Source: Vermamoeba vermiformis (Eukaryota). From it: a DNA stretch of 64,000 nt. The notes beneath the pieces were generated by a model. The model was given only the letters and a program-made list of their open reading frames with translations, had not been told where the DNA came from and did no database searches. The stretch is from positions 1-64,000 of the forward strand of contig JBEWZL010000260.1 of NCBI GenBank assembly GCA_045837725.1, in the 5' to 3' direction. The number at the start of each line of letters is the position of its first letter. Positions within the stretch are counted from its first letter, which is position 1. Made by a program: the position numbers and the translations under genes. Positions 9,083-32,024 of the stretch are shown one piece after another.

Positions 9083-9268
9083 ATGGAAAACTTACAGTTC
9101 TTGACAAAGAAAAGCCAAAATATTGAATTCTGCTATTTTCAGGAAGGCAATCGCTATTTTTGTGCACATGGGGAAGACTTAGATGACCATTGCCACATGT
9201 TATTCTACTCAGAAAGCAGTCTTCTAGAACATTGGTATGAACATCATGTTCCTAAGGACAAATGTTGA
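9083..9268 (+). CDS. Small protein with C2H2-like zinc finger
   Basis: YFC-x9-C..LF.....LLEH...HH pattern. Confidence 0.35.
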   Translation: MENLQFLTKKSQNIEFCYFQEGNRYFCAHGEDLDDHCHMLFYSESSLLEHWYEHHVPKDKC

Positions 9269-9445
9269 CATAGAAAAGCAGCATCCTTGATAAAGCTAGT
9301 TACTTGTTAAATCTGATGACGTTGAATAAAGAATTTGTTATCTAGCAGCAGAAATGATGATTTGGTTGAGTATTTCAGTTTATTGAGCTTGTTAACGGTT
9401 TGTCTTTGTTTGAACTCTGTAACTTGGAAATATCTTCCTTAATTC

Positions 9446-9871: not shown

Positions 9872-9881
9872 CTTTGCAATA

Positions 9882-10916: not shown

Positions 10917-11200
10917 GATGACTGACTGTTATGTATATATTTTAAATTTGGAATAATTGTATTTATATAGTTCAAACAGATTCCCAGAGGCATAGTTTTA
11001 TTCTACATCAATTTTTTTAATAATTGCAATTATTGTGTATAACCCCTAAAAACAATTTAATTCTGGTTTGCAAGTAAAATGATCAATCATTTGGTTGTTG
11101 ATGAAGCTTCATTGATGGAGTTTGTAGTAAATGAAGAGAGCTATTCCTCCTCTGATGGTGTTTGAAAAAAATTGTTTAAATAATCTAATACATTTCACAG

Positions 11201-11632
11201 ATGACATGTGGGAAAAATACAACTTGCCAGAAGGAGTGTAAGTTATCAATTTCTAAGCATTCAATTAATTTAAGCAGGTTGATTTGCCAGTGTGACCCAG
11301 TTTATGGTCATTTCTATGCCATTAATAAGAAGCATAGGAATGCTCATCTCTCCCTGGATGCTTTAGCTGGAATTTATAATGTTACAATGGCTACATTGGA
11401 AGAGTTAATCAATGATAAAAAGCCATCAATTTTTTTGGGAGTACTGAGGCACATCAACAACCAGGCAGATACCAGAAAAGTAAATTTTTTTCCACTGAGA
11501 CGGATCAACAAAATGATGAAAGATATTTGCATTGAATGTGATTCTTCTAAAGCCCAAGAATTTGTCAATTCAATGCTTCCAGGTCTCAAGCTTACTCAAA
11601 ATGGTGGTCAATTATCATTGGAATATCTCTGA
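11201..11632 (+). CDS. Hypothetical protein (likely upstream exon from ~11079)
   Basis: 143-aa ORF with splice-like signals upstream; no recognised domain. Confidence 0.4.
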   Translation: MTCGKNTTCQKECKLSISKHSINLSRLICQCDPVYGHFYAINKKHRNAHLSLDALAGIYNVTMATLEELINDKKPSIFLGVLRHINNQADTRKVNFFPLRRINKMMKDICIECDSSKAQEFVNSMLPGLKLTQNGGQLSLEYL

Positions 11633-12063
11633 ATAAGGAGTATTCCAACAAATAAACGCTTTATTACAAACTTACAACTGTTTCCCCAGGCTTACAATCA
11701 ATTGATTGTAAGCCATTAAGAACAAGCTCAGCAATATTTATGTGCTCAGGCAACATGTTTAAATCTTTTTTGTGCTCTTCTGAAACCATGATAATCGCTG
11801 ACAAAAAAAAAGTTACTGTTAAAATTTGGTTGGAGATAGCAAGAAGGTAACCAACTTTTTGGGTAGAATTCATCTTCAAGCTCCATTGCAAGACCTTTAA
11901 GATGTTCAACAATCCTTTCCAGTAATCTGATTTTGCGTAAAATGTGATTGTAGATCAACCATTTACTTTGAGAATCTCCCAAAGATGTAGCCATATTGTC
12001 AAGTTTTCTTTTTGCAATCTGATTTAAAAAAAATGATATAATATTTATTTTCTAACGTGCAAA

Positions 12064-13185
12064 TTAATATTTCAGACTTCTTTTTAAGTTTTTCAGGATT
12101 TCAGCACACATTATAAACATTCGAAACATTTCTTCTGTGTGGACCTTTGATATAGGAATTTTAATAAAGCTCAATATCTTCATCCAAATTTCCAATGGAA
12201 ACCTTTTAAGGAACACAGGAAGCTTGCAAGCCATAAAACTAAGAACTTGAAGGAGTAGTTTCCATTCTTTTTGTTGATTATTTTTGTTCTTATTCAGTAA
12301 ATGAGTTATTTCGGGATTTAACATGTCCTGCCCAGCAATTGATAAAGTTGTTAAAGAATTGTTGTGTTGCAGAATGTCCAGAATTGGTCCGTTGTATAAA
12401 TCTTTGTTACAGTGCCCTTCCTCTGTTTCAATGGATAAATGATACACACTTGTGTTTTCTTTCAAAGCACTAAATAAAACCGCCATCTCATTGATGGGCG
12501 GCATTGAATTTGATCTGATACCAAGTCGCTTCACAGAACTTGTTAGAGCCACACCCATTCCCAAACTCTCCAAGGACTTGGTTCGCAAAAAACCATTGCA
12601 ATCTATAATTCTCAACTCAAATTCTTGAATACATTTGTTCTCCTTCAAGTACTCCACAATGCACCTTGCTTGAAAATCTGCATTACAGGTTATTGAAAGT
12701 TTTTTGATGTGCCTTTCCTTAGTGATTGAAGATAGGATATGCTCAGCAGCTTGAGTTTCCAACATTAAATTGTCAACTTTTGTAGATTTTTTAATTATTT
12801 GGGTAATCAAATCCACCTCCTTTTTAGAAATAGAAGCAACTGCAATGCTTTTGATGGATTGGCTAGGATGCACCATATTTCCAGTAAGGTTGGAAATGTA
12901 GTACTCTAAATTTGCATTTACACTCTTCAAGGTAAGAATTTCAATGTTAGGGTTCTTTCCTATTGAGCTGAATATGACATCAAGTTTGTCATGATCCAAG
13001 AAAGAAAGAGACTCTCCAATTACAATGCTACTAAGATCCGCACTTTTTAGACTATTGCCCAAAAGATTGGCATCAAAAGTATCTGGTAGTTGTAGTGCAT
13101 CGAAATCAAGCTCCTCCATATTGATTTCAAAGTTTGCATTTTTTAACAAAAACTGAGTTACCTCCTCTTCAGAATAAGCCTTCAT
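12064..13185 (-). CDS. RNI-like LRR protein with C-terminal F-box-like motif (paralog of 9882-10916)
   Basis: LKENTSVYHLSI and LQHNNSLTTLSI repeats; FPLEIWMKILSFIKIP aligns with LPNEIWLEIFKQVKIP. Confidence 0.75.
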   Translation of the reverse strand: MKAYSEEEVTQFLLKNANFEINMEELDFDALQLPDTFDANLLGNSLKSADLSSIVIGESLSFLDHDKLDVIFSSIGKNPNIEILTLKSVNANLEYYISNLTGNMVHPSQSIKSIAVASISKKEVDLITQIIKKSTKVDNLMLETQAAEHILSSITKERHIKKLSITCNADFQARCIVEYLKENKCIQEFELRIIDCNGFLRTKSLESLGMGVALTSSVKRLGIRSNSMPPINEMAVLFSALKENTSVYHLSIETEEGHCNKDLYNGPILDILQHNNSLTTLSIAGQDMLNPEITHLLNKNKNNQQKEWKLLLQVLSFMACKLPVFLKRFPLEIWMKILSFIKIPISKVHTEEMFRMFIMCAEILKNLKRSLKY

Positions 13186-13347
13186 AAAACAAGGTTGGAA
13201 AAGCACAACTAATACATTTTACATACAGTGTTGGAATTGCATAACCGCCTTTTTTTTATTGGCTCATAGGAATTTGAGCTAGACATTGTAGTGATGCAAT
13301 GTGTTTATATTTGTAACATTAAATATTTTTCCAAAGGAGTAGATTTT

Positions 13348-14005
13348 TTATTCTTCCAGGGAAAACTTTGGTTTTTTCTTTGCCAGAATCTCGATGTCGG
13401 AATCTGCTAAGTATTCCAACTTTCTTTTCAATGGGGATCCAGAAGGTGGATCCTTTTGACTTGAGTTGTCTTGGTGGGTTGGTTTTTCTTCTTTAAGTTT
13501 AATCTGTACCTTTTGGTCTGCATCCAGCTCTGCATAATAAGTATGAGGAGGAAGAATATCAAGTACAGTCCTAAGAGCTTTCAAGTTAGTATAAAAACAA
13601 ACTGTGACAAAACTTACTCAACATTTCTGAGCAAAGGTTCAGATGCCCAAATTGAGGGTAATGTTTTGAGTAAACAGTTGATAATTGAAACGTCAAACCA
13701 CTCAAACAATACCATATGCGGTGGGAGTCCAACTTTTGCTGCATCAACAATTCTTTTCTTACCTGTCATAATGAGAAGTTAAGGTTAATTTTCTGACAGT
13801 TTACATACTTTGCTCAGAGTACTTTTCTTTTATTTTTTCATTTAGCAGCATTGTTGAAATACCAGTCATCCTATTTATGCTTTGAGGATTCATCAGCAAC
13901 ACTTGTGATGATTCATCATACAACACTCCTTCTTTTTTAAAAAATCTACAACAGTTAGTCACTCCTTGCTTCAACCTGAAAAGTGTCTTACGTAAAAGAT
14001 GTCAT
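13348..14005 (-). CDS. Hypothetical multi-exon protein with basic NLS-like motifs
   Basis: Several short exons with GT-AG signals; last exon contains PLKRK and KKKPK. Confidence 0.35.
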
Positions 14006-14122
14006 TGTATTCATAATTTCTGCTTTTTTTTAATTTGACAGTTTATTTCTTTTTTAAATATTGATTACAAATTTTTTTTTGATTATATTGATAAATCATG
14101 GATAAAATGGACTGTTTTCTGT

Positions 14123-17100
14123 TTAATTTGAGTTGGTGTTGTAGTTGTAAAACTGCAAAGACTTTTCAATGTCACCAAGTAAGGTTGGATCACTAAGCCC
14201 ATGAGTTTCCAAAAGAAGCAATCCTCTAAATATTGTAGGTAAGCGTTAGAGCTACAATCAAATGAATTCTTACCTTAGAACTTGGTATCCAACTTTTTCA
14301 AAGATTAGCTTAGATTTATAAGCCAAAGTAATGTCTCCACTGTAATCATCATCAAAACAAAGCAAGCAATTAATTTCTTGCTCTGCATCAAGCCAACCAA
14401 GGAGAGATACTTTTCTAAAGCATTTTCTGCAAAGAATTGTTCGGTCAAAGGTATGAAGGTGCCTTTCAATTTGCATGTGCCAGTTTAGTAGGCATTTTGA
14501 TATTGGAGAGATAATCTTTTTCTGAACTTCTCCCTTCTTTCCATAAGTTTTACTATCAGATCCAAAAACAATGAATTTGACCGGATCCAAAATGGAATTT
14601 TCTGTGGAAATGAAGGATGATATTACTTTGGAGTATGTTTGAAAGTTATAGACCATCAGATGTCCTTCATATGAGTCAACCAGTTTTTCTGGAGGATGTG
14701 AAGTAAGAACATTGGGAAGTGAAAATGCTGAGCAACTCTTCCAATCAGCAGGAACCAAAATAGTATCTCCAGGAGATTGTTTTACGTACAAATGTTCTTT
14801 TAAAGTTCATTAATTCATAAGGATATTTTCTATTGTTTACCTGCAGAGTCAATGTGTTTAGAAAACTTCCACCACATCACACCTTCAAATCCAGGCAAAA
14901 GAGTAATCAGTTTGTTGGTGTACTAGAAAAATTACCATAAATTAATAAATAATGAATTCAAAAACAACATACGGTAACATTTAACTCAGTTGGCAAAAGG
15001 CAGTAACGAGTGAATTTCAATCCGATGACGGTACGACTAGCAAAACCATTAAAGAATGCATTTTTTTCAAGCAAAGCCTCTTCTGGGAATTCTCCTGGGA
15101 ATACTGTATAAGGAATGCCTGGTTTTTGCAGATCTCCCCCATAACACTCCTTAACGAAAGGAGCTGTTGTTAAACTAAGCCATTCAGATGAATAAAATGG
15201 AAATTTTGGATTGTATGAGTGGCCAACACTTCGTAATTGCAATGGAGATAGAATCGATGCTAAATTAGCTCTAAGATTTGTGTTTACCATGCCAGAAATG
15301 CTAAAATAGTTAAGTTAAACTCTGATAATATTTTGCTATATGGCTTACAATTGGAAGAGAAAATGTTGCCGATATTGATGCTGAAGTGACTTGCTGATTA
15401 TTTTCACTGGCATTTTAATCTACAATACATTAATAAACTGGCTAATAATTGACAGATAAAATACCTCACTAAGTTTTGGGGAAACTTCATATTCAGGAGC
15501 TAAAGGGATTTGGTTTGGAACTAAAGAGGTCAGCAAATCAATACGTGGCCATTGTTCAATTGTTTCTTCAGCAACAGCACATTGGATGTGTCCATGATGA
15601 ACAATTGTATGACCTGATCCCACTAAAGTATATGCTGCTGCTTCAGTTAATTGCCCTAAAAATCCAACTCTTCCAAATGTAACCAAGTGTGAAACTAATT
15701 GCCATTAACATCAATTTTTTAATGACACTGACTTACTACTTCTTATTGCAGCAAGTGTTGCCAGTCCAACGTAAGTGAAGGAGTTAAGACTAAAATAACT
15801 TCTGCACACTAGCTCGGTTATTTCTTCTAAGTGAGATTGGATAGTGCCTTGTGGAAAGTTGACAAAGACAACTGATACATATTCATGAATGATCACACAA
15901 AGGTCGTAGTCATCCTTCAACCAGTTTTTGACTTTTAGTGCTGCAGTTGGAATAATTTCTGTGTACTAGTTAGCTATTATTGCAAATGCAAGGAAACATA
16001 CCAATGACAGGTTTGTTCAAGCTTTTATACAATTCAGTAATATGTTCTCTGTCAAAAATGTAGCTTGGACCAAAGAAATTGACCACAAGACCTTCATACT
16101 GATTATGCAATGCTTCAAAATCTTGAATTGTGTTGGCAAAAAAGTAATCCGGAGTTTGTAGATCTTGAAACTCTTTGTCCAATTCCAATTCTTCTAAGAC
16201 CTTATCAACCTTTGGCTGGGTTATTCGATGATCAGGAATTTTTAGAAGTCGTGGCAAAACTACACTTTCAAATTTTTCATTTAGAGTTAATTCAGTTTGC
16301 TTGCTCCATCTCTCTTTCTTAATGCCTAAAGTTTTGATGCAAAAATCTTCGTAATGCATTAAGCCCCGAAATCTGGTGATGGATTCAATCCAGTCAGGTC
16401 TAGATGATCCATTTTCTGTAATTGTAAGTTAACAGAAGAGATACAACTAATTGTACCTTGTTCACCCACAACTTCTAATTCTTTAAATCGTACAACTTCC
16501 CCACGAACTTTTATTGGAGTACCCAAAACCTTTCGTATTGCAACTTTGGAGTTCTTGGCAAATTTAATTCCTTTAAATAATCAGTTGGAGTATTAAGTTT
16601 TGGATTTGGACGTACTCTCTTCATACCAATCCCTTGTTTGTATGATCAAAGGATCTAGTACCTTGCAGCGATCCTCATCACTAATAAATGCCACTGCAAG
16701 GTTCAGCAAAAGCTTTAAACTAAAGGGTTCTCGTCTGAAGAAATGTTTGAGTAAAAAAAAAAGAGCCTTCTGAGCACTTACTTATCCTTTAGTAATTTTT
16801 GGTGGCATGAATAAAATGAATGAAGGCTTCGCAATCTCACAAGTAAATCCTCCTCAAAATGCTTATGTAAGGTGCACAACTCCTCTGTTAAAGATTAGAT
16901 GGTTGACAATAAAGTATAGTAATCAGCTTACCAAAATTTTCAAACTTAACTGTATGTTTTAGGTCATTTTTCCACTGGGTCGCTTGACTTCCCAAAGCAA
17001 CCTTTTTATCAAACTCTCTTTTGAACTGGTGCATGAATAGAACTTTGTCTACAAAGTTTAAATCAACTGCATCCTCTTCAGCACTTTGAAGATGAAACCC

Positions 17101-17878
17101 TTTGGAGTACAATTCCTAACAATGTTCAGCTCACATTTAACCTTGTTGTCATGCTTACCTCTTTACTAGGAGCTAAAAATACTTTGATTCCACAATAGCC
17201 AAGCATTCCTTTTTCAAGCATGTGAAATAATGCAACAGCACGATGTTGACCAGCAAACACAGCATAGCAATAGGTGTCAAATGTGACATCTCTAATGATA
17301 ACAAAAGATGGTGCCCCCTGCACTGCTGACCAATATAGACTCTTTCCCATCAAACTTTTTACTTGTGAGGGAATTAACTGTCTTATGTTATGCCTATGTT
17401 AAATTGTTAAATACATTAGAAACATAGTTAATGTTACTTCTACGCTTACAGTCTTCCTTTGAACATCTGCTTGAAATCAGCAGCAGTTACACTCGACAAA
17501 AAGCAGGTTCCATCAACAAGGTGCTTCTCACAACAATAAGCTTCTAACTGAGGCAATCTGTAATGTATATGAGGGAGGTAATTTTACAAACTTAGACATT
17601 ACTTTATCACTTTTTCATGCGACTGGCAACCTAATAATTGGCATTTACCCCCTTCAATAACTGGCAAATAAGGCACCAACTCATACTGAGCTTCATTCAA
17701 TAAAAAATCCTAAAAATTGAATTGCCCTATATTAGCATTGTGCAATAAATACCTTCTTATTAATGTTACAATAAGTAATTATTTTGTATTTTTTCAGCTG
17801 AATTACTTTTTAAAAACAATAACGTCTTACCTTCTCAGTGATATTTATTGTGGAGTGCCAATTACCATCTTGATCCAT
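14123..17878 (-). CDS. Multi-exon ParB/Srx-like + degenerate JmjC + Cys-finger protein (paralog 1)
   Basis: HNIRQL...VFAGQHRAVAL (ParB-like GxxR); YVKQSPGDTILVPADWKS (JmjC C-terminal strand, His replaced); CRKC...CLLC; exons join through GT-AG introns. Confidence 0.7.
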
Positions 17879-17976
17879 TTTGTCACTTTAGATTGTGGTA
17901 TTTTGTTGGAAAAAGAAAGAAAAACTGAAGAAAAAAAAGAAGGTTTTTTTTTTATTAAACTTATTGTAGCCTTGAA

Positions 17977-18381
17977 CTATTGGGTAGACTCCACTTGATT
18001 AATCAAAACTTGCATAAATTCTTCAAATGCTTGGGCATTGTGGGTCTCTGTGGTCAGTTTCCTGCAGAAATTCAACATAATTGTTTGAGAATGATTGAAT
18101 TGCTTCTCAAAGGCTTCTATTAGGCCTTTAAAGCAACGAAGCTTTGCCAAGATACAAAACTCATCCACAGACAGTGTAAAACTGAATATTTTTGTTACAT
18201 CAACCGTTCCACAATTCTCTGAGGTTGCCAAGCCATTGTTTGGAAATAACCGTATATACCCTCTTTTGATTATGAAACCAATTGAGGGATTTTCAAATGA
18301 TAAGGGAAGTTTAGGATCAATAGCAGTATTTAGAATATTAAAAAGAGCATTTAAGCAATATATTCTTGCACTAGAGTCCAT
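17977..18381 (-). CDS. Hypothetical ~135-aa protein (tandem paralog A)
   Basis: LFNILNTAIDPKLP...SIGFIIKRG resembles the neighbour's LWDMLKNPIDSLP...SLGYAIYLG. Confidence 0.55.
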   Translation of the reverse strand: MDSSARIYCLNALFNILNTAIDPKLPLSFENPSIGFIIKRGYIRLFPNNGLATSENCGTVDVTKIFSFTLSVDEFCILAKLRCFKGLIEAFEKQFNHSQTIMLNFCRKLTTETHNAQAFEEFMQVLINQVESTQ

Positions 18382-18425
18382 GTTAGTGACGAGAAACACA
18401 GTTTAATAAATGAGTTTTATTTTTG

Positions 18426-18848
18426 TTAAATCATTTTTTTCTTCTCCAGCAATTTTTGAAGCTCAACCAATCTGCACATCACGGAGATTATTGCAGTAAT
18501 TGTCTCATCAATTTGATTTGCTAGCTTGCTCTTCACTTCGGCATTAATAAACGGATTTATGGGTCCACCAACAATATGATCAAAGCATGGCGACTCTATA
18601 ATTTTATCATAGTATGTATTACGGTCTGCTGGATCAGTATTCCCTTTTTCACCTTCAATATATTGTTGAAGGATTGGTTGAACGCATTCTGGTAGCACTC
18701 TACTGTTGCACAATTCATTAACACCAAGATATATAGCGTATCCAAGAGAATTGCAGTCAACCACATTTGATTCTGGCAAGGAATCAATTGGATTTTTAAG
18801 CATATCCCAAAGTAAATCATAAAACTTGTAGACAGGGTTGTTGTTCAT
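18426..18848 (-). CDS. Hypothetical 140-aa protein (tandem paralog B)
   Basis: ATG-initiated ORF; N-terminal similarity to 17977-18381. Confidence 0.6.
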   Translation of the reverse strand: MNNNPVYKFYDLLWDMLKNPIDSLPESNVVDCNSLGYAIYLGVNELCNSRVLPECVQPILQQYIEGEKGNTDPADRNTYYDKIIESPCFDHIVGGPINPFINAEVKSKLANQIDETITAIISVMCRLVELQKLLEKKKMI

Positions 18849-18925
18849 TTGATTTTAACACATAAAAAATGGGGTTTTCATCACTGAAATAAATCAGATT
18901 TTATTCTAAATTGTTGTGATTTTAG

Positions 18926-21900
18926 TTAACCAGTACGATTGAGATCCTGCCACAGCAAAAACAGTTCTTTTTCCGGCTTTGGGATGATATTGCCTTTTGC
19001 AGCGGAAGCTTTTTTCTCAAATAACCCAGTGGCAATGATATCCCTTTTGGTTATAGATGAATAGTGAACAGGTTTCTCATAAGATCCCCAATGTTTGGTT
19101 AAATGGTATATGCAGTGCTTCTTCAACTCTGCAGGAGAAGAAGATTTGTTTTTCTGAACCACCAAACTCACTAAATTTTCAATGAAGCTGAAGTCAATCA
19201 ATGGAATGTCAGTAAAAGGATCAAAGCATATTTGACTTCCTTCCACTGGAATTTCAATCTTTGAGTTGATAACCACTCCCCACCTAAATGTTTTTTCAGA
19301 TTTTTTCATATACTGCCAAAACGTTGTTGATCCCAAATATGGAAGGATTTTGTAATTCTGTTGGGTAATCTGCCTGGCCATTTCAACCATAATTAATTCT
19401 TTTGACAACTGAAACCTGTAGTCATTATCACTGCTTTTCCTTTTTCCATACAATTTTTCAAGTTGGGAGTTTAGTTCTGGGATTAGATTACCAACAATTT
19501 CAATCCATTTCTTGCTGTAATCCAAATCGTTTCCCAGAAAAACACTTCTCTGGGATACATTCCCAAAGGCTGCTGCAACAAAAGAGTGCGGTTTACAGGA
19601 ACCATCAATTACTCCTGTTACCGATGTAACCATACCTAAGTTGCCAGATATGCACACTTTTGAAAGTTCTTCTACTGAGCACTGAATAATTTTAGCAATG
19701 TCATTGAATAGAATATTCAAAATGTTCTTTGCCAAGATCTGTAAGAGAGGCTCATCCATGCCACTTTCCGACTTAGCTGCCCCCAAAACGTAGTTTGATC
19801 TTTGGAGGACCTTTGGCATATTATTCCATAATTTATCAGGGAAGAGAATTCGAAGAAACTTTCTGGGCAATGGTGGGGGATTCATTCCTGAAATCACATT
19901 AAACTCATCATTATCCTCATCTAATGAGTTGTTTTCAACAACACTGTTCAATTTGCAATTTAAAATTGCGTCTGATAGAACAAGGTTCTCCCCAAGAGTA
20001 AATAAGTTTGTTGTGCGCATTCTATGCCCAATTTTTGTAGCCTCAAAAAGAGCTGGGTGCTTCAAATATGATAAGAAACCACACCACATGAACAACAATG
20101 CATCTTCCAACACCATTGCTAAACGGATTAAACCTGGGTCGTAGAATGTTGCACTGAGCTGCTGGGTTTTTCCCTCTCTTATATCCAAAGATTTGCTGTA
20201 GACTTTTTTCAGGAAATCACAAATTGCGTTGAATTGAAGTTTTGCTGGTAGGACAAATTCTTTGGAGGCAACAAACTGAAAGGGCGCATACCGCATGCAT
20301 ATCTTGGGGATTCTTCCAGAAATAACCAAGTCTTCCAGATCATTTTGAAAAGATAACATCTTTTTTCCCAAATCTTCAAGCATATTATAACATTGAGTTA
20401 TGTTTTTTGCTTGCCTTAGTCTAAAAGTAACCTCCAGCCTACATCCATACACTTTCTTCTCCAAATTATTAAAGTAATGGTTCCCCTTCTCTTTTTCTAT
20501 ATCAGATAGCATGTTTTCTCTTATTTCTTTTAATTTTCTTTTGGTTGCTTCATTGAATTGGACCATTTCAGGAAAAGAAGTACCTATTCTATTGCTTGGA
20601 AATAGTAACATGGCATGTTTTGAATTTTCAAATGGCATATTATTCCTGAATTCTTTGCTTCCATTGTTGTACACCTTAACTTCAGCTACAATGCTTTGCT
20701 TTGATCGATAGCGTATCATAGCACTTTCAGTCAGAGCACTTCCCAGGTAGTAGAATCTACTGCAATTTGGATTTGGTTTTGTCATTGTTCCCAACGAGAA
20801 TATGTTTTTCAAGGGAGTATCTGTTGTGGAAAATGAGTGAACAACAGCAGGATTCCATAGAGTTGTTGTTGGAGTTTCGTTTATAGTTGACCTTATCAAA
20901 TTAGAAAAAGAATAGTGAGGAATTTTTTTGGTTTACTTGAAGTCTAGAGCCAAATCTAGATATGTTTGAACGTTCTCATTCTTCAGATCAAAAAGCAGTC
21001 CCAGAGCCTTAACATATTCTTCCAGCTCATTGCTATTTGTTACTGGGGTTTTAGTTCCAAAAACTTGAATGACAAACCATACTTTCATTCTAAACATTAA
21101 GTTATAGTCATGCAATTTTTTCTTAAAGAATTTCTAACATATTTCATACTTTTGCTGGTGACAATAATTATGAAGTGCCGCCTTTATGGAGGGAAGGATT
21201 GTGGTATTTAAATGGCAATGTGCTCCTGGAGTTCCAACTCTCCATGCTAACTTCTCTTCTTGAGGGCTATTGACAATAGGGGAGGGAATTCCTTCCTCCT
21301 TACTCAATCCTGGGCGTTTAAATTAAACTTGTGAATTTTGCATAAAAGAACTTACCATCCCAAACAACCTTTTTCCAAAAACCTTGGATTACACTTGTGT
21401 TATCATTCTGAGGTTTCAAATCAGGAAAGCAAACCCATATTTTATAATACTCATGAACATATCTAAAGAAATATTAAGCATGTTGAAGTAAATATGACAT
21501 CATACCCAAAAAGTGTGTTAACCATTCTATGTGCATAATTACCACCAAATAATACTTTTGATTTAGAAATATAGTCACTCATTTTAGGATATATTACAAT
21601 GTCCAAAGAAGTCTGAAGAAAGTTTAGGTCAGGTGAAGTGATGACAAAAGCATCAGTATCCATTTTGAATGTGCCTTTTTGACCTGATTGTCCTTCTAAA
21701 CACAAAAATTGATCAAATTTCTGCATCCATTGTAGTGAAGGATTTATTATTGTAGCATTTTCCTAGTAACAATTAAATAAAAGAAGGGATTTGTAGCAGT
21801 TACCTCAATTTTAAGCAAATTTGACCTCAAATATTGTGTGTAGACAGACGGTGGCAATTCCGTGATCTTATTTTGGAAAGCTTTCTCAAACTTCTGAGTT

Positions 21901-22350
21901 TCTGTTTTGCTATTTATATCGTAACCAGATTTTCTATTTCAAAAGTCAGTATCTCCATGGAATAAAGAAAATTACCTCTCCATTTCCTGAACCATATCAA
22001 ATATCAATTCCTTTGAGCAATCAGCACCAAAGGAATTATAGTCTACATTAATTCCCAGATTTATTTCCTCACTTTCTGATGAATCTGAAGACGAACTCAA
22101 ACCAAAGAACAAATTTTCTTCCTAGAAGCTCGAATTAAAGAATGAAAGGTTATTTAGTACGTACATCTGCCCCAACACTTGAAGACTCATTAAATGAATC
22201 GAATAAATCAATGGACTCATCAGAAGATAAATCATCAAATAAGTCTACGCTGGAATCTTCTTCCTATTTTTAATGTTAATTAAAGTTAAATCTAACTAGT
22301 AGGAATCACCTTTTCCAATTTCAACTTGCTGAACTTGTGCACCAAAGCTT
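18926..22350 (-). CDS. Large spliced protein with Rep_trans (pT181 RepC/RepD-type) initiator-like motifs; start uncertain
   Basis: In-frame splicing checked by hand (e.g. 45-nt intron 20892-20936 gives QTYLDLALDFKSTINET); ordered motifs TYLDLALDF / FYYLG / VKVYNNGSKE / GCRLEV. Confidence 0.6.
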
Positions 22351-22384
22351 CATTAGCCTATTATCCTATGTTACTTCTTTTCTT

Positions 22385-24307
22385 TCAATGAAGCAAGTAC
22401 TGCTCTGGAGAGTACCAAAAGTTTGGTTCAAATTTTTTGTCCTTCAAATTTTTAAACAACTCTTCTAATTCTTTTGCTGCAACAAATTGCTTGACTAAAA
22501 ATCTGTAGCTTAAAGAGGAAAAAAGGAGAACAGGTTTTGTTGCACATAGGTCATAAAAAAGCAAAAGCTCGCTTTTCCAATGTCTGAAAACTTGTTTGCT
22601 GTCTGTGCCAACAGATTTAATCTCTAGCAGTGTAGCAGCATCAGATAAACATAAAGAACGCTTGAATGTAAGGTTTCCCAAAGTATCCTTGAAATACTCG
22701 GCTAACTGTGCATTAATTTGAGTTAAAGATTTTTCCTTAACCACAGAGCTCATTTGCTGTGAGGATAATCTTTCAAACTGATGTTTGTTCTTGTTTTCCT
22801 CCAAAAGTTTCATTTTTTCTGAAATTTGAACTTCTTCAGTAATTCTCTTAACCTTTTCTTTCAAAAGCCATGCAATAGCAAACAATCGTAATTTTTTTGC
22901 TGCCATAATCTCTGCTTCATAATCTGCGACCTTTTCACAGATTTCAAGGATAGACGAGATGGTTTTAGCATAGGAATTATTCTTTTCAACTTCATCAATA
23001 ACTTTAACTTTTTCAGAAGAAGACTTGAAGAATTTACCAAGAATTTCTGGTATGTAAAACCAAGTTTTTGCCACCTCTTCATTAAGTTCCAATGTTCTAC
23101 CCGTCATTAATGCAGTATACAAGTGCTTTGCAAAGGTTGCAGTTGACAAAACTTGTAGCTGTCTTTTTGATAAATCAAATAAAGTCTTGCTTTCAGCCTC
23201 TCTTATTGAGTCTTCCAATGTGGAAGAAAGAAGTCCTTTTTTCTTTCCACTTATTATTTTGATAGTGGCTTGAGCTTCTGGTTGCAAATCATGGTATTTT
23301 TTGGTGTAAATATTTCCCAACGATTTAACTTTCATTAATCCCTTTTCTCTTTTCACTGATAAGAATATTCCAAATTTGGCAAAATCCTTGAGAATACTTG
23401 CTGCTAACACAGTAGCCTCTTCTGCATTTAAGTGTTCCTGACCCGATTGCTGATTTCTCCCCATAGAATTCATTTTTGAAATTTTGCTGCTGAGAATGCT
23501 GACTTTTGCTGGTTTTTGTTGATTTTCAGAAGTTGATTCCATTTCTTCTGATAAATCTTGCTCCCCTGAACCTCCTTGAAGACTCTCTTCGGCCATGTCA
23601 TCTCCAAAATCACTAGAAGATGATAGCTCAAAGCTTTCAGGAATTTCTTTTTCAGAATTATCAGGTTTAGATTTCCACTTCAAGGCATTTTCATGAATCA
23701 ACTCTTTAATAGGCCCAAAATTTTTTTTAGTTCTGCTGGAAGAATCTGATTTGAAAATTTTCTTTGGGGATTCTTCTAGTGGGAGGTCTTCTTTTTCATC
23801 TCTCTTTCTTTTCTTGTGGCCATTGTCATCTTCCCCTAAAAAACAATCCCAGTGCTTTTCACAAGTTTCAACAATATTTTTTATCGCATCAAAGTTTTGA
23901 GAAAAGCTTTGGTAAAAATGACTATCAAACTGCTTGCACATTTCAAGGTTGAAAGACCCTTTATGAACCCTTCTTTGAAATAATGCAAGCATGTAAGAAT
24001 ATACAGCGTAAAATATGATAAAATCATTTGACCAGCCAGCTCTTGACCTTAAATTTTGTTTAATCTTTTGATTTTCATTTTTATGCCCTGTTTTTATCAA
24101 CCACTCACCAAATTCTTTTTTGAAAGACAAATCCAAGCCTTTTTTATAAGAAAAAAGGCTATCAGATTTATCTTCATGTGCACAAAAAAAACAAAAACAG
24201 ATAGAAAAGATTATGTCAGTTAACTGACTTTTGTACAAGTGGTCTAAATGGGGCAAGATGCTTTGTTTACAAAAGGCTATAAACTTTTCACTTACTTTGT
24301 TATCCAT
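22385..24307 (-). CDS. Hypothetical 640-aa protein with acidic/Ser linker, HKKRKR NLS-like motif and helical C-terminal half
   Basis: Long uninterrupted ATG-initiated ORF; no domain recognised. Confidence 0.8.
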   Translation of the reverse strand: MDNKVSEKFIAFCKQSILPHLDHLYKSQLTDIIFSICFCFFCAHEDKSDSLFSYKKGLDLSFKKEFGEWLIKTGHKNENQKIKQNLRSRAGWSNDFIIFYAVYSYMLALFQRRVHKGSFNLEMCKQFDSHFYQSFSQNFDAIKNIVETCEKHWDCFLGEDDNGHKKRKRDEKEDLPLEESPKKIFKSDSSSRTKKNFGPIKELIHENALKWKSKPDNSEKEIPESFELSSSSDFGDDMAEESLQGGSGEQDLSEEMESTSENQQKPAKVSILSSKISKMNSMGRNQQSGQEHLNAEEATVLAASILKDFAKFGIFLSVKREKGLMKVKSLGNIYTKKYHDLQPEAQATIKIISGKKKGLLSSTLEDSIREAESKTLFDLSKRQLQVLSTATFAKHLYTALMTGRTLELNEEVAKTWFYIPEILGKFFKSSSEKVKVIDEVEKNNSYAKTISSILEICEKVADYEAEIMAAKKLRLFAIAWLLKEKVKRITEEVQISEKMKLLEENKNKHQFERLSSQQMSSVVKEKSLTQINAQLAEYFKDTLGNLTFKRSLCLSDAATLLEIKSVGTDSKQVFRHWKSELLLFYDLCATKPVLLFSSLSYRFLVKQFVAAKELEELFKNLKDKKFEPNFWYSPEQYLLH

Positions 24308-24535
24308 AGTATATAGGATGCACTAGAAGTGTTGTGAACAGTAGATACAAGTTTTGTTAAAAGAACAAAAATCACAAAATACATACGTTATTTTTATTTT
24401 TGGGATTTTTTTTAAACAAAAATTGGAATTTTGTTATATAGCTATTTGGATACATTAGCATTGATCAGAAATATTGCTTCATCAACATTCATTATGTTAT
24501 TGTAATCTTCCTCAGTATAGATATTCAAAATCCTA

Positions 24536-27500
24536 TTAATCCTGGAGCATATTAGCTTTGTTAACTGCATTAGAACAAGCATACCTTGCTAAGACTGTTT
24601 GGAGCTGGACTGTGTCGTTGCAAGAGTAGATTTTGAATTTATGTTTACCTTTGATTCTCCTATCTCTCCAGCAGAAGCCACAATAGATTTTTGTTGCGCA
24701 TTGGTCACACTCTTGTTTGCTGCATCCAGCATAGAAAAAGGGCATTTGTCTTTTGCAAAGCATGCAAACAGTCATGTTCTCTATTGGCCTGTATTCAAAG
24801 TCTTCTTTCCAAAGAAATTGGCAATCATCTCGAAATTTCAATATTGATTCGGCCAGAATTTTTTTCTCTTCATTTCCAAGCTTCATTAACTTATCAGGAT
24901 GATTGAATAAGTATCCCAAAATACTTTCAATCGGGATGGGATTAATAGAATAAGTAGGATACATTAGCAGAGCAGCAGGTAAGAATGTAAAAGGTAGCAC
25001 TGTCCAGCTAATAGCAGTAGTGATTGGAGATACCTGCAATTCCTCTATGTAAGTTTTTTTTGCACCTCGAACCAACTTACCTCCTTTTGTGGATATGATA
25101 TAACACAATGCCAAGTTAAGGGAGGAACCAAAATAATTTCCCCAGATTTTTGCCAATAACAATCATATTCAACACCAGCTCTATCTAACTCTGATTTGGG
25201 AATCAGTACTCCATGCATGTAATCATCACTATTTTTCTTTTCTGTAATTCGATTAGCACATTTACATTTTGTTGTTTGTTACCATTAAAAAGAGCCTTGA
25301 ACTTTTGCAAGTTTGAAACAGAATTTTTAATGAAGTACCAAAGTTTTAGTCCAGATCCAATAGAAATATTGACAGCAGGAGCACCCTACAGATAATTAGC
25401 CCTCAACATTGATCAAAATTGCAATTCTCACCAATGGGTCCATGTGAAAACCAATGCCACCAAGGTAACTGGACTTGATGATAGAAAAATTGCCCCAATT
25501 GAAGTTGTTCATCTGCAACAATGAGTTTTTCAGGGAATATTCTTCAGGAATATCATTGAGCAAAGCAGATTTTTCAACAAGCTTTAAGAACTCTTCTTCA
25601 ACGCTCTCATGATCTGTTTATTGAGTCAACAATTACTCCATGTGTATCTAATTTACTTACCTAACGAGCAAAATGGATTGAAGTGCAGCTCTTCTGGTGA
25701 TAGTTCTATGTTTTTTAGCTCAAAAACATTTGAATCCAGGTTTAGGTGGAAAACTTCAGTGCTAACGGGAAAGTCCTTCAACCTAAATTGTATTAGTGCA
25801 ATTCCTTGGGGATTATGACAAAGTTACCGATTTGTTATTGCATGTAACAAAGAGAAATGTCCTTTAGTGCATATTTTCAAGGAAGAGTTGCTGCAGGAAC
25901 TTGCATTCCAAAAAAGCGCCTCTGTTGAACATAAAGGGAGGATAGATTTTTCTGGTTCTGGTTGCTCTGCCCATTTGTTGTAATATTCTTTGTGATTGTC
26001 CTCATCAATCCAAAGTGCTTCATAGGAAATATTGTGTGAATCCATTGCACGCTGAATTTGGGAAGATTGCTCAAAATCTGGGCATAGATTTAAGACTTTT
26101 TCAGCTGACCAAACTGCCTTTTGAACCATTACCATTGCACAGAGTGTCACAACAAGGAAATTAACATTGGACAGTGCGGTGTCTTTGAAGAATGATTGTT
26201 TATACTAAGAAATTAGTTAGAATAACATGGTTTTGGTGAAAATCACATACCACATGCATTGCAAAGTAGAATAAATCTCGTAGGTCAAAATTAGTTCCTT
26301 TAAGTTTTGAGCCCCAGCAGATATGGTAGTGGCATGATTCATCAACAAAGAAACAATGCCTTTTTTGGGGTAGATGTCCCTCATATATACATTCAAGTCC
26401 AAGTGGAATAATAACTAAAGACCTTGTTAATACAAAGTTTCTAAATAAATCTGACTTACCTAGCATGCTTTGATACTCAAAGCTTGGATTGGCAAGCCAT
26501 TTTTGTGCCGTTGTATCCTCACCATAATGGTTTCTAAGGTCTAAAAAATATACTTCACTTGGCTGCCAATCCAACGCCAACACTTTAAATGCAGGTATTG
26601 ATGCTTTGCGATTCATAGCAGAGATCTTTCGAGCAAAAATTGGCATCAGCAGAGCTTCTGCATCTCTAACAACAGTTGGTAATTCACCTTCCTTGTCCTC
26701 ATAGTGCGCATCAAGTTCAATATGTAAAGACATTGTTTCTTCTGGCAAAGCATTTGAAGCATTCTGTCGAAGTATATTATTTAGCGCCTCATGAGCCGTC
26801 TTCATTCTTGACTCTTTATCTGCATTTTCATGAAGTTTAACTTGCCAGTTCCTATAGGATTCTGAGGTGGCTACAAATAAGTTAGGACATTTAATTACCT
26901 ATAAAGTGACAGTACCTTGAGCTAAGACTTTAACTTGAGCAGCCTCACTATAATTGCATCCCAGTATGTATATATCATTGATAACAAAGGGAATCATGTC
27001 TTTTTCCTCATCATTCAGTAAATTAGCTAGTTGGGTGCGACGGCAGTGGTTGCTAATTATTTGTATGGCCTTCTCTCCCAGATTCTTAGCCATAGAATAA
27101 AGTCTTGCTGTTTAAATTGTTATTCTAAGATGAATGTATTACAAGAATTCAGTTCTTACACAAGTTTAGCACCTTCTTGCCAGGAAATCTAGCTTCTAAT
27201 TCTGTTTGATTGGTTATCTCTGGGTGTTCTTTTAAAATTCTAACGCAGAATTATGAGAGATTAGGCACTAGTGAAGTCATACCTTCGAATTGCAAAAACT
27301 ACATCAATAAAAGTTTTAGGAACTTCTGAAGAATTGAAAACAGATTGTGTTTGAAGATCCTGTAGCTAGTTAATATTAAAAGAATCAAGAGTTTAATTAC
27401 CTCTACTGTAACAAATGCAAAAAGCTCAATCAACAGCGCAGACACTTGCAATTCAGCACTTGCAGAGTTTAATTCGTGAATAGCTTGAGAGCAGTGTTGA

Positions 27501-28142
27501 CCATCACTAATCCCTAAGCACAATCTTTGACTATCATTCTTTGACTCTAACACGTGACATTGAATTGGTTTTGGCATTTTGGGGTTGTTTATGATCTGAT
27601 TCTTCAAAGTGTGCACGTGCTCTTCTGAAAAAGGTCTAGAATTCACACTATAACAATTAATAAGTATTTTAATTTATCATATCTAACTTACAATACTCCT
27701 TTTATGATGGACTCCGGAACAAAAATGTTTGTCTCCAATTTTAGGTAACCTCGAACACCTTTACGCCAACAAGATTTGCAATGAGCAGTTCTAATTGGAA
27801 TAGAAGGCACTTCAATTGTTCTATATTATTTTGTGAATAATTGCCACGATGCCAAAAATTAGAACTGCATACGCTAGTCTTATGGCGTACAAGTTCAGTT
27901 TTTAAGTACTTACAAACCATCAATTTGGCCACAAGTTGAACAAAGAGTTTGGTCTGATTTCTTTATATTGCAACTTGAGTGATTGATTGGTTTCCATTGA
28001 TCCAATAAGAGCTGATGCGGATGTGAAAGCTAACAAAATATTTAACAGTAGGTAACTTTGAACCACAAAAATTTTGTTACCGTTAGCAACTTACTTTGTC
28101 ACCATTCTCAAGGCAATGCATCTCATTGTTATTATTGGCCAT
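24536..28142 (-). CDS. Multi-exon ParB/Srx-like + JmjC dioxygenase + Cys-finger protein (paralog 2)
   Basis: NSRPFSEEHVHTL...ISDGQHC (ParB-like); GIGFHMDP (~25440), GLKLWYF, QKSGEIILVPPLTWHCV (~25110), TTAISW give an intact JmjC H-x-D...H; CMLC..C....CDQC....YCGFC. Confidence 0.75.
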
Positions 28143-28717
28143 TAGAATTTGAACGTGTTGGTTTAGTTGTTGCTCCCAGGGTGGTACAAATTTTGCTAAC
28201 AATTAATGGTAACAATATATAAAATTTGGTAAGTGTAGTGTTGCCATGGATATTGGAAAAAGATGGATAGTTAGTCCTCCGCACACCGCTTTATTTATCG
28301 GGCAGAATTCCTAATAAGGAAAATTTAACAAAACATTGGGAAGTAATCTTCAGTTAATCACCAGAGTAAGCGTTGTAAGAATGAACACTATAGAAAAAAG
28401 GCCAGATAATGCTAGTAAAATGGAGGGGTATTTGGCACAGGCAAAGCTCTTAATGTAAATAATTGCGGAAAATGATAATTATGATCTTTAATTCAGAAAC
28501 TGATTGTTACTAACAAAAAACATTTAAATAGAGGCATTGATGTATATGGACTTGAATTAGAGGACAATAGACAAACAAACAAAAAGAGAAAGAATTTGAC
28601 GGATGTGAACAAACAGAAAAAAAAACAAAAAACTGTATCATAACAGTTAATAAAATAAGATTGTCTTATCCTATATATAAACATTTAACAGGTATTTTCC
28701 TACTCTACAACTTTCTA

Positions 28718-28892
28718 CCATTTTCACCTTGGAGTGGATCTAGCGTTAACAGAGAATAAGGGTAGCAGAGTGAAAATAACAGTAAGAATTAGAGTTTTGT
28801 TAACAAGCATTATTAATTCTTTGATTTAAATCCATTTCTGGCTGCTGCAATTGGCAGCAGCCATTTTCACCTCGAGGTGGATCCGGTTAACC
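28718..28892. repeat. Direct repeat pair plus hairpin at the left edge of the CpG-rich island
   Basis: ccattttcacct(tgga/cgag)gtggatc..gttaac at 28718 and 28861; tggctgctgcaattggcagcagcca at 28839-28863. Confidence 0.6.
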
Positions 28893-28992
28893 CGTAGTAC
28901 AAACATATTTTGAGGAGTTATTATAGCTAAATCATTTATTTGAAGTGATTCTTTACAAGACTATTTCATATTAGATAACTTACGGATTATTT

Positions 28993-29573
28993 CTACAAGG
29001 CAACTAATAACGGAGCCCATGAGCGAGCACTGAGAAGACTGTCCAACGCAGGATACGAACGAAAAGCACCAGCATGAACTGAAACGACTGTTGGTGGTCG
29101 GTTTCTCGCGGAAAGAAAGTCAACTTTCGATCGCGCTCTCGTTTTTCCAATCAATCCTGTATCCTGTAATAAACGATTTTCAATGCACATTACTGTATTG
29201 ATGCCATTGAGGCATTGAAACAAGTCAGTGATGTAATTAATTGCGGATGTCCACTGACCGTCATCCGGAAAATCACACGGGAGCAATCGATTTGCTCCCA
29301 CAATAGCGTATTATACTATGCGTAGAATTATCATACCTTGGCACGTGGCTTCGCAGCTCGTTGCTGTGATGCTCGTTGATGTCGATCGACTGATCTGCTG
29401 ATAATATTAACAAATAGCAATTATTGATGTCAGATCGGATGTGCAAGCAACGTAATTTGAACACGAGCAATTGATCGCTCCAATGCAATAGCAAAATATA
29501 TGGTAACGTACATTATTTGTTTGCGTAGCTGCTTCGCCAGTCTGTGCTGTGGTGCTAGGTGTTGTCGCGCCAT
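28993..29573 (-). CDS. Possible small basic spliced ORF (~100 aa)
   Basis: MARQHLAPQHRLAKQLRKQI|IRSVDRHQRASQQRAAKPRAK|DTGLIG... joins in frame via two GT-AG introns; no homology recognised. Confidence 0.25.
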
Positions 29574-29579
29574 CCAATC

Positions 29580-31330
29580 TAAAAATAACGTTAAAAATTA
29601 CGAGGGATCGAAAGCTGCGAGCACATTAAGGCCACTAATACTAATTGATAGTAACCTTTTATATTAATACTATAGTTAAATTAACATGTGCTTACCTTTC
29701 AATCATTACACTAATTTTAGTATCGAATCCGCGTTTCTCTATCATACTCATCATTTGAGGCCACCTAATCATATATTTTGTTAGAGAGAATATACTGCAA
29801 GTGTATTATGTCACAGACATCCCTGGCACTTCGTATTACTCGGAGAGGTGACCGCCACCAGATCGCCGATCGGCTATTGAACACATCAACTTGCTATTCT
29901 AAATATAAAAACGCGTTAATATGTATGTATAAATAACTAAAATGACAAAACTTACACGTAGAATTATCTCCAACAAATTTTCTTCTCGCGAATCCGTTCA
30001 ACTTACGGATCGCGTCTCTCTTTCACGTTCGCAATTTCATTCGATCTAAATGTATAAAACGTTAGTATTTATATATAGCTATCGTGGTATACTACTTACT
30101 TTGCTATCTTTGATTATTTGTGCACGTGATTTAATCGCTATCGGATTGGTGTTCTCGTCCTTGAAATTAAATTGCGGCGCTTCTTATAACTATAATAAGA
30201 ATAACATTAATACTTTACAATTGACTCAATAAACATTGTTTACTTGCTTTTAGCGCGATCGACGCGTGTGTAATCAGTTGATGGCTCGCGTGTCAGACTT
30301 CGAAAATTTTCAACTACGGGGGTCCCTGCATAAATTGAGTCAGTAATACAAATAATTATTATAGTGATTATGTATTATTTACGTAAATAAAGCTTACCTT
30401 GTAATCGCTAATTTTTGAGGATCGCGCATCCCAAGTTGCGGATTTCATTATTGTATGTCTTCATTCGATAAATCTAGTAGGATACAACGTTAGTACTTAT
30501 AACTAATAAACGTGTAAATAAACTTACACACTTTTCATTCGTTACTGCCGCGAGATTTGACCCCAGTTAGATCACGTGCACGCGATCTGTGAAATTAGAT
30601 CATAACCCTTGAAATATCCTAAAAATGCTATCAATACGTTTCAATTAATAAGTCAAATACAGTCTTGTTACCTTGTGCGCAATTGATGCGTTGTGTCAAT
30701 GGGATAACCGACAAGACGATCGACTTCGATTTGATTTAGCGTGGGATCTCGTCTGTGCAAGTCCTGCAGAAGAACAAACCGTTTGTTCTTCTGCAGGACT
30801 TGCACATTAATAACTAATAAAATAATAATTTTAAAGCATTGCACTTACTTATTTTAGCGATTGATGCATGCGCACCATCAAATTTGAAGGAAAGTTAGCC
30901 CTCGATCTGCGCGTCCTACTTATTAATAATATTATTAAATATTTATAATAATTAAATTGTATAGTATTACTTGCACTTATTATTTTGGGCTTGAGGGTTA
31001 AATAATTAGCGCGAGCAAGATCGCGAAGATGTCGCGATCAATATCGGTCTCTCCGCTTAGCGAAACAGCTTCCACATAAGATTAAACAATTAATAAAACT
31101 ATTTGCACAATTTTCAAAATTAAAAGTGGTTATCCCCAAATTGAATTGATCATTACCTCGATCTCAACGGGTTCGAGCTCTGAGCTTGGCGAGTAATTTA
31201 ATCCAAATGACTCACGCTGAACGGCCGTGGCTACCGTGGCGTCTCTCTGCTGTAAATAACTACTCACAAGAATATATTTCGACCCTTGTGGTCGATTTGT
31301 TGGCGACTGTTGCGAAATAACCACTGTGAT
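29580..31330 (-). ncRNA. Putative spliced non-coding hairpin-exon array, block A
   Basis: Regular AT-rich introns (29899-29955, 30046-30099, 30190-30243, 30326-30397, 30474-30527, 30619-30671) with GTAA donors, YTRAC-like branch points and AG; exon 29956-30045 has stops in all three frames. Confidence 0.5.
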
Positions 31331-32024
31331 TATTTTCGCATCAGCTGACCTGTGTGGAGACCCGTGGAGATTTAATTTGCTTTTATTTAACAATTATTAC
31401 AGTTTAAATGTAGTTCGTACTCGTTCTAATATTAGCAAAATCTAGATCCGTTCGTAATTGATCAGATAGACTCCGTAAATCGCTGATTGTGAAAATGTTA
31501 AGAATAACGATTTAAAATAGGTTTAATCTACTTACGTAAGTAGATCGAATCTCGATCAGTTTCTCGTAACTATTAAATTCCGTGTAATTTTAAAAATTTA
31601 AAATGGCGCATTCCTTGCGTTCTTATTGACTATTCTTATTACTATCACGCGTCCAACGCATTTTGGTAGCTTTAACACAGCAAGTACCGTATTTCCTAAT
31701 TAGGAAAACATATACGTAAGTTCGTAACCGGCCGTTACGAATATTTCACATCTTCGCATTATGTTGGGTACTATAGTTCTTTTATTATTACAGTTATATA
31801 TTTTGGCGCATGCCATTGCCAAATTAAAGCAGACGGATGTAAACAACGGATCAACGGATTACATCCGTTCTGAGATCCGGTAAGATGCTATTTTAATAAT
31901 ATTGTAATAGATATATTAGATAAACAGAAAATTTTGAACTTACATCCGTATTGATAATAATTATTTAGCAATTTTTTGGATTTGTAGTCGTTGTTTTAAT
32001 TCATTCGTTGTATTAAGAATATCT

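Follow-up and report, generated by a model that had tools for sequence, protein, structure and literature searches.

Two anciently duplicated genes near a chromosome end of Vermamoeba vermiformis with JmjC and putative ParB/DndB-like regions

Can a nucleotide-binding module of the ParB type and an oxygenase domain of the JmjC type be parts of one eukaryotic gene, and can such a gene have been duplicated? The question is raised by a stretch of 64,000 nucleotides (nt) from Vermamoeba vermiformis (GenBank assembly GCA_045837725.1, contig JBEWZL010000260.1, positions 1 to 64,000 of the forward strand), here called the window. The window starts with a perfect (AACCCT)n telomere repeat that extends from position 1 to approximately 190. 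Its G+C content is 34-45% and its genes are split by introns, and it therefore represents the end of a eukaryotic chromosome. Between 5.5 and 28 kilobases (kb) nearly every long open frame is on the minus strand, and the two genes considered here, copy 1 and copy 2, are found in this part, 14-28 kb from the telomere. A first-pass annotation, made from the DNA letters without database searches, described them as paralogs with reciprocal loss of catalytic motifs on either side of a Rep-like gene. We suggest, with somewhat better than even confidence, that they arose by duplication of one lineage-specific gene combining a ParB/DndB-like and a JmjC part and have since diverged very far, and that the catalytic residues were kept in copy 2 and lost from copy 1.

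The gene models were made with a simple dynamic programme, in which coding length is maximised over GT-AG introns. Copy 1 (14043..17878, minus strand) has approximately 1017 codons in 16-18 exons and an ATG at 17878. Copy 2 (24442..28142, minus strand) has approximately 1000 codons in 14-15 exons and an ATG at 28142. Both starts had been proposed in the first-pass annotation and were recovered by these models. The 3' ends are uncertain: the stop of copy 1 is at 14270 when the last intron is left unspliced, or at 14083 or 14043 in the two models, and copy 2 ends at 24536 with its last intron unused or at 24442. On the minus strand the splice models scored 2652 for the copy 1 region and 2747 for the copy 2 region, compared with 1391-1735 for eight shuffles of each region and 1836 and 1622 for the plus strand. 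Random sequence required 23-27 introns, against 14-16 exons in the real loci. The models take 13-17 introns with lengths of 35-93 nt, the donors being GTA in 28/30 and the acceptors YAG in 27/30 cases. From the ParB-like to the JmjC exons the largest gap is no more than 63 nt in both models, and these exons are predicted to be on one transcript per gene.

The JmjC domain of copy 2 extends over four exons, with its core at 25081..25613 on the minus strand (exons 25613-25432, 25385-25283 and 25241-25081). The open reading frame (ORF) at 25045-25278 gave a match to the Pfam JmjC profile (PF02373, E 2.3e-4) covering profile positions 65-103 of 114; the score of 22.0 bits is below the 24-bit cutoff and was obtained with a single exon. 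In the spliced protein we found H726-x-D728-x7-N-x7-K, and a WHCV motif with its His at +83. On the DNA, HMD is located at 25438-25446 (FHMD at 25438-25449), the Asn within 25362-25373, the Lys within 25332-25352 and WHCV at 25102-25113. According to the residue assignments in PMC6010108, KDM4A binds iron through His188, Glu190 and His276 and uses Asn198 and Lys206 to hold 2-oxoglutarate. The offsets from His188 are thus +2, +10, +18 and +88, and copy 2 differs in the position of the distal His.

The copy 2 protein contains the pattern H.[DE].{7}N.{7}K once, and 98 of 5000 shuffles of the protein contain it too. It can only be read after a predicted intron has been removed, and as it crosses an exon junction it supports the splice model. 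It is encoded on other exons than those giving the Pfam match, and the two are therefore independent lines of evidence. Searches against the PDB sequences returned cupin rows alone for the WHCV exon, all of them weak (E 0.6-1.1), and nothing relevant for the other exons. The intact JmjC that had been read from FHMD and WHCV is thus borne out by the motifs, the profile match and the KDM4A-like spacing. We regard the JmjC identity of copy 2 as well supported by this evidence from its sequence, and most probably the protein is an active demethylase-type oxygenase that depends on Fe(II) and 2-oxoglutarate.

The C-terminal exon of copy 2 (24585..25033, minus strand) encodes a Cys-rich finger, from CMLC (24755-24766) to CGFC (24671-24682), for which the zinc-finger rows in Pfam were sub-threshold (E 0.033-0.3). 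In having a Cys-rich segment after the barrel, and in the spacing of the Fe and 2-oxoglutarate residues that it shares with KDM4A, copy 2 is similar to the KDM4/KDM5-type JmjC demethylases. Its JmjC row is also the only Pfam match that comes near a threshold. Unlike these demethylases, it lacks JmjN, PHD, Tudor and ARID domains, its Pfam match stays below the cutoff, its N-terminal part is ParB-like and its middle part is without relatives.

The corresponding block of copy 1, including CxxC pairs, is located at 14274..15300 on the minus strand (exons 15300-14973, 14922-14841 and 14796-14274). It encodes the motifs IGLKFTRY (15003-15026), QSPGDTILVP (14750-14779) and VPADWKS (14735-14755), and the Cys pairs CRKC (14420-14431) and CLLC (14357-14368). 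When the two genes are anchored on their shared introns, copy 1 has E-L-N at the place of HMD in copy 2, and W-K-S at that of WHC, with Lys instead of the distal His. The Asn and Lys positions for 2-oxoglutarate are not retained, and all five catalytic positions are gone. Between the phase-1 intron and the last of the phase-2 introns the block measures 523 nt in copy 1 and 161+449 nt in copy 2; copy 1 is thus 29 codons shorter, just before the Q-x-x-G-D/E-x-ILVP strand. The JmjC profile gave no row in copy 1 at E<=10, and its kinship with the JmjC of copy 2 is assigned because of the intron phases and the shared Q-x-x-G-D/E-x-I-L-V-P motif. Of the earlier description of this block as a JmjC without Fe ligands, the motifs and the missing catalytic residues hold true, whereas the JmjC itself is not detected by any profile. 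Judged from these positions, copy 1 is a JmjC-derived region without catalytic equipment and would be a non-catalytic relative of copy 2, that is a regulator, a scaffold or a decaying copy.

Are the two genes paralogs? A tblastx comparison between the copies gave nothing relevant, and blastp of copy 1 against copy 2 gave a best E of 0.28. Local and global alignments of the whole proteins and of both domain regions had z of -0.5 to 0.8, and a main-diagonal band test had z 1.0, with 51 of 300 shuffles equally good. The best hhalign matches were the motifs that the first-pass annotation had named, at E 0.55 and 0.1. The introns provide the evidence that the amino acids do not. In copy 1 the 5' exons are 48, 107, 108, 235 and 184 nt long (the 48 is from the first model), and in copy 2 they are 48, 116, 129, 247 and 77+80 nt long, with phases as in copy 1. 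In a simple count, 6 intron pairs agree in phase where 1.36 would be expected (P 0.0006). The longest collinear chain of same-phase introns has 10 pairs, a length that 0 of 4000 random sets reached. The automatic model of copy 2, taken without edits, still gave a chain of 9 pairs (P 0.0005), and a stricter offset rule reduced the two chains to 7 and 6 pairs (P 0.0013 and 0.0035).

The two genes descend from a common ancestor and are either very old or fast-evolving duplicates. We conclude this because the positions and phases of their introns agree, and not from their sequence: the proposed paralogy stands on the order and phase of the introns and is not accompanied by detectable sequence similarity. 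The pair is thereby an example of how intron positions can prove that two genes have a common origin even where their sequences no longer resemble each other. The ancestor would have encoded a protein of approximately 1000 residues, composed of a short Cys knuckle, a ParB/DndB-like nucleotide-binding module, an unassigned middle part of approximately 450 residues, a KDM-type JmjC and a Cys-rich finger. As a separate observation, the C-terminal CxxC knuckle of copy 1 (14411-14482) resembles the N-terminal knuckle of copy 2 (27740-27808; both coordinates estimated) in the form R-T-x-x-C-x-x-C-x-R-K...G-x-L. Of the 24 residues 10 are identical, which is not significant by either blastp (E 0.28) or hhalign (0.1).

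The ParB-like exon of copy 1 is located at 17159..17393 (minus strand, 235 nt), and the ParB/DndB-like exon of copy 2 at 27401..27647 (minus strand, 247 nt). Both are entered in phase 2 and left in phase 0. They encode AGQHR (17240-17254) and DGQHC (27491-27505), respectively, where the first-pass annotation had read these letters. GQH occurs twice in the 26,876 residues of 261 six-frame ORFs of at least 60 residues, once in each copy, at residue 142 and residue 147 of the two models. The Arg of the G-x-x-R motif has a role in nucleotide binding; it is kept in copy 1 and absent from copy 2.

For the 95-residue ORF of copy 2 the top PHROG was phrog_1033, 'ParB-like partition protein' (E 0.0017, 19.2 bits, residues 10-79), and the top Pfam row was DndB (E 0.083, 12.4 bits against a cutoff of 29.1, residues 53-78). 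Both rows are far below the curated cutoffs, and both span DGQHC (residues 57-61). ParB_N gave no Pfam row for either copy, and with the untrimmed exon ORFs we found no ParB family in Pfam (E<=1), NCBIfam (E<=10) or the PDB sequences (E<=10). No Pfam row for the helix-turn-helix (HTH) or the C-terminal dimerisation domain of canonical ParB, or for a ParA partner, was obtained on any exon ORF. In this both copies differ from canonical ParB, and they are therefore not partition proteins.

Among the Atlas protein-language-model neighbours of the copy 1 exon we found the ParB_N label (on 11% of cluster members) and clusters of DUF6551, with scores of 0.92-0.93. Those of the copy 2 exon, which was queried separately, include ParB_N (11%) and DUF6551 (93%), with scores of 0.91-0.92. 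For the two exons 19/30 and 24/30 of the neighbours are without any family. The ParB-like assignment of copy 1 is made because it is kin to copy 2, with which it shares its exon structure, and because of these neighbours. One Atlas cluster of copy 1 was labelled DUF3723 (31%), and a link to Starship elements through this label was rejected, there being no Pfam DUF3723 row. The function of DUF3723 is listed as unknown in Table 2 of the Starship paper (PMC9156397).

AlphaFold2 predictions had a predicted local distance difference test score (pLDDT) of 47.3 for the ParB ORF of copy 1 alone and of 48.3 for the copy 2 exon with a two-row alignment. Foldseek gave 0 matches at E<=0.001 for the copy 2 exon model, and the best matches (RelE and NMT1, E 1.5) are noise at such confidence. 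The order in this low-confidence model is strand-helix-strand-strand-helix, with GQH opening the second helix. The same order makes up the core of the ParB/Srx fold.

It should be noted that the pair could also be JmjC and zinc-finger chromatin proteins without a ParB fold, GQH and the weak ParB rows being due to chance or to some other small domain. The searches for ParB families, which gave no match in three libraries, are consistent with this, as are copy 1 matching none of the libraries, the exon folds with pLDDT of 47-48 and fold-search noise, and the Atlas neighbours, where ParB_N labels a small part of the cluster members and most neighbours have no family. What makes this explanation rather improbable is that a family named a priori came out on top of two independent libraries for copy 2, over DGQHC, and that ParB is among the neighbours of both exons even though the exons share no detectable similarity. 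The order of strands and helices, with GQH at the start of the second helix, points the same way. We consider a ParB/DndB-like fold of the N-terminal exon of copy 2 plausible from its sequence. The assignment of both GQH modules to ParB/Srx thus has weak profile matches for copy 2 (phrog_1033 and DndB) and no profile match for copy 1.

The motif states of the two copies are indeed reciprocal: copy 1 has GQHR without the residues for JmjC catalysis, and copy 2 has the full catalytic set but GQHC. From such a pattern it had been proposed that the two are sub-functionalised partners and possibly form a DNA-loading anti-silencing heterodimer; extended to the locus, such a heterodimer would serve a Rep-encoding mobile element flanked by the two genes. 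In favour of this model, the middle gene and the two copies lie close together on the same strand, and approximately 100 nt separate the middle gene from copy 1. JmjC anti-silencing factors also exist. In brief, Epe1 of S. pombe, DMM-1 of Neurospora and IBM1 of Arabidopsis are JmjC proteins that limit heterochromatin, some of them with altered catalytic residues, and they offer a model for the role of a catalytically dead copy 1 near a telomere. To our knowledge none of the three carries a ParB-like module.

The middle gene does not bear out the Rep-like label it had been given. It is located at 17977..24461 on the minus strand and has approximately 1900 codons in 14 exons, with an uncertain start, either at 24461 or at an ATG at 24307. 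No Rep, Helitron, helicase or other family was found in Pfam with 8 of its ORFs, and its two large exons had no match in PHROGs or PADLOC. A word search with the 668-residue exon gave 7999 candidates and no relatives. We found no repeats flanking the three genes, terminal repeats included. The three proteins resemble neither one another nor any other part of the window, and there is no second copy in it. Thus, no sign of a mobile element or a Rep was found at the locus in the window.

A further point concerns the proposed dependence of one copy on the other. One subclass of phage thymine dioxygenases (5mYOX176) needs a ParB-like protein (ParB176) on double-stranded DNA, and the role of ParB176 is unaffected when its conserved residues for binding nucleoside triphosphates (NTP) are mutated, as described for this pair in PMC13229309. 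Since the role of the phage ParB survives such mutations, reciprocal loss does not imply mutual dependence, and a module without the Arg, as in copy 2, is not necessarily dead and does not necessarily require a partner. The two copies do show the reciprocal pattern of motifs, and alone it is no argument for a heterodimer. We consider the heterodimer model very improbable.

Several results weigh against two diverged duplicates of a ParB/DndB-like and JmjC gene, the reading that we prefer. The two proteins are not alignable, and the best diagonal matches that arise by chance score as well as their motif coincidences. In the ParB region of copy 2 one intron pair was placed by hand after viewing copy 1; the chain figures for the automatic model are independent of this pair. 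The Pfam JmjC match and both ParB rows of copy 2 are below their cutoffs, and the ParB-like exon of copy 1 has no match in Pfam, NCBIfam, PHROGs, PADLOC or the PDB sequences. The programme used for the gene models is also able to link all three genes, from copy 2 through the middle gene to copy 1, in a single path of 4113 codons, and the gene borders are for this reason regarded as predicted. Both genes start with a 48-nt ATG exon, which supports separate genes. Relatives are likewise missing. HMMER gave 0 hits for the 232-residue exon of copy 2 against 1,835,955,588 representatives. Word searches among longer proteins gave 347 candidates for this exon, none at E<=1e-3, and 363 candidates for the 178-residue exon of copy 1, none at E<=0.01. 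With the ParB exon of copy 2 we obtained 31 pattern matches in viral contigs, none of which was confirmed, and NCBIfam and PADLOC searches with the gene exons gave nothing relevant.

The RNA reads belong to the same side of the balance. Three RNA-seq runs with the same species label, from one study and at most two samples, were mapped to positions 13000-32900; approximately 13 million records were read per run, which is approximately 47% of each. None of the sequence runs listed as containing the stretch is recorded as RNA. The depth was zero across 14328-17647 and 24952-28271 in all three runs, for which there was no housekeeping positive control: the housekeeping genes of the window, e.g. 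a peroxiredoxin-like ORF at 54694-55143, an SPFH gene at 60486-61148 and RNA polymerase exons at 62553-63728, lie outside the mapped positions. Only 94, 112 and 32 reads mapped on the stretch, and 90, 111 and 32 of these mapped just partly, at A-rich tracts. They form pile-ups at 24182-24199 and 28611-28632 and continue into poly(A). 'Joints' between these two tracts were rejected as splicing and are a low-complexity poly(A) artefact. RNA-seq had been proposed as a check of the exon structure, and it gave no confirmation. Both genes look silent in the sampled RNA, and strain divergence between the RNA and the window is possible.

The zero depth over both genes also favours another explanation, namely that these genes and the middle orphan are silent relics, either decaying subtelomeric duplicates or the remains of an old insertion, and that copy 2 merely looks intact. 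The absence of relatives in any search fits this explanation, and so does copy 1, which is without catalytic residues and 29 codons. Moreover, the two models of copy 1 differ in their exons at 15300-15700, where a frameshift may be hidden, and a splice model that maximises length can 'rescue' broken frames. Relics would have to be reconciled, however, with frames of approximately 1000 codons that are still open although sequence similarity has been lost, which argues for constraint, with the high share of GTA donors (28/30) and the tight intron lengths, and with a copy 2 that retains all five catalytic positions at exact spacing. The RNA test, in addition, lacked a positive control. We therefore hold the relic explanation to be unlikely.

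Returning to the reading of two diverged duplicates, the closest functional precedent for copy 2 is that of the phage ParB-dependent thymine dioxygenases, where a ParB fold and an Fe(II)/2-oxoglutarate dioxygenase work together on double-stranded DNA. In 5mYOX176/ParB176, so far as the description in PMC13229309 goes, the NTP residues are dispensable, much as copy 2 is without the Arg. Unlike copy 2, the phage system consists of two proteins with an oxygenase of the TET/JBP family, and it acts on DNA. Copy 2 is by its model one polypeptide with a JmjC barrel and eukaryotic introns, and is known here from the gene sequence alone.

Precedents for the N-terminal part come from a survey of the ParB-CTPase fold (PMC12704722), which presents the fold as an NTP-binding building block that has been joined to domains particular to single lineages. 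Sulfiredoxin is its commonest eukaryotic representative, DndB-like and DUF6551 proteins are named, and DUF6551 is a fusion partner of the fold in phage proteins. DndB and DUF6551 are also the families touched by our searches with the exons of the two copies. JmjC, cupin, dioxygenase and demethylase have 0 mentions in the main text and 6 supplementary files of the survey, whose further files may list more. A literature search for fusions of ParB with JmjC, jumonji or DndB found no paper describing such an architecture. Among eukaryotes, there is precedent for joining a part of ParB to an enzyme that modifies nucleic acids: chlorophytes and chytrids have fusions of ParB-HTH with a Dam-type adenine methyltransferase, which the account in PMC4738411 traces to phage loci. 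These fusions have an HTH and a methyltransferase, whereas copy 2 would have an N-terminal nucleotide-binding part and an oxygenase.

By analogy with the phage ParB-dioxygenases and the ParB-methyltransferase fusions, the N-terminal module of copy 2 would target or license the oxygenase. We suggest that the ParB-like module and the zinc knuckles may tether the oxygenase to DNA or chromatin, or activate it there, and that it could act either on a base or on a protein, whether a histone or not. For copy 1, the options would be a relative without catalytic function and a copy in decay. The analysis shows the gene structure at the level of the models, the motifs, the JmjC of copy 2 and the common ancestry; the ParB fold, a single transcript per gene, a nuclear action directed at DNA, and the substrate are parts of this proposal that we infer. 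In a bolder version, copy 2 would be a eukaryotic DNA-directed Fe(II)/2-oxoglutarate oxygenase, its ParB-like module would open or mark double-stranded DNA for the JmjC, a base or a DNA-bound protein would be oxidised at chromosome ends, and the catalytically dead copy 1 would act as the regulator. Copy 2 would in that case be a one-protein analogue, built on a JmjC barrel, of the phage thymine dioxygenases that ParB activates. We regard this version as a long shot.

ParB-fold modules are now viewed as NTP switches of general use, which occur in fusions with many enzymes, and in 2026 such a module was shown to activate a phage DNA dioxygenase. If the preferred reading is true, a eukaryotic gene with ParB-like and JmjC parts would be a new architecture for both families and a testable candidate for a DNA- or chromatin-targeted oxygenase. 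The weight of this is limited by the orphan state of the genes, their silence in the sampled RNA, the borderline ParB assignment and a fusion that comes from a computed gene model.

The rest of the window harbors other genes and repeats. On the telomere side of the pair, positions 5560-13218 of the minus strand encode four or five orphan genes. By eye these have leucine-rich-repeat-like middle parts and an F-box-like motif near the C-terminus, and Pfam gave no significant rows for them; this gene run looks like a subtelomeric gene family. On the other side, a single-exon ORF on the plus strand (31938-32852) encodes 304 residues with an H-x-D motif and has zero RNA depth. A TET/JBP-like identity of this ORF was considered and rejected, with no support in Pfam, NCBIfam or the PDB sequences; it has one PHROG row, of unknown function (E 0.0085).

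A long terminal repeat (LTR) retrotransposon is located at 35835-41341 on the minus strand. Its terminal repeats of 137 nt (35835-35971 and 41205-41341) are 99% identical, and the element looks young. It encodes a gag-like ORF of 377 residues with a CCHC knuckle and a pol ORF of 1396 residues, in which protease, reverse transcriptase and integrase motifs were recognised by eye. The rise in G+C content at 36-42 kb is due to this element. A dispersed family of short repeats with a conserved palindromic core, TCGACC...GGTCGA, is found on both sides of it, at 31199-31299, 34495-35305 and 43040-43699. The segments 34945-35111 and 42864-43028 are 73-93% alike, with a spacing of approximately 7.9 kb.

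A foldback-like repeat at 44416-47564 has arrays of a 47-nt unit as inverted arms (e.g. 44450-44601 and 47407-47558, 90% complementary), which enclose an orphan ORF of 249 residues at 44930-45679. A related fragment is found in inverted orientation at 4587-4700. Finally, a 21-nt tandem repeat with at least 9 copies (50834-51103) is open in several frames on both strands, and is adjoined by a BTB-domain gene at 51820-52431 (Pfam BTB, E 2.6e-21).

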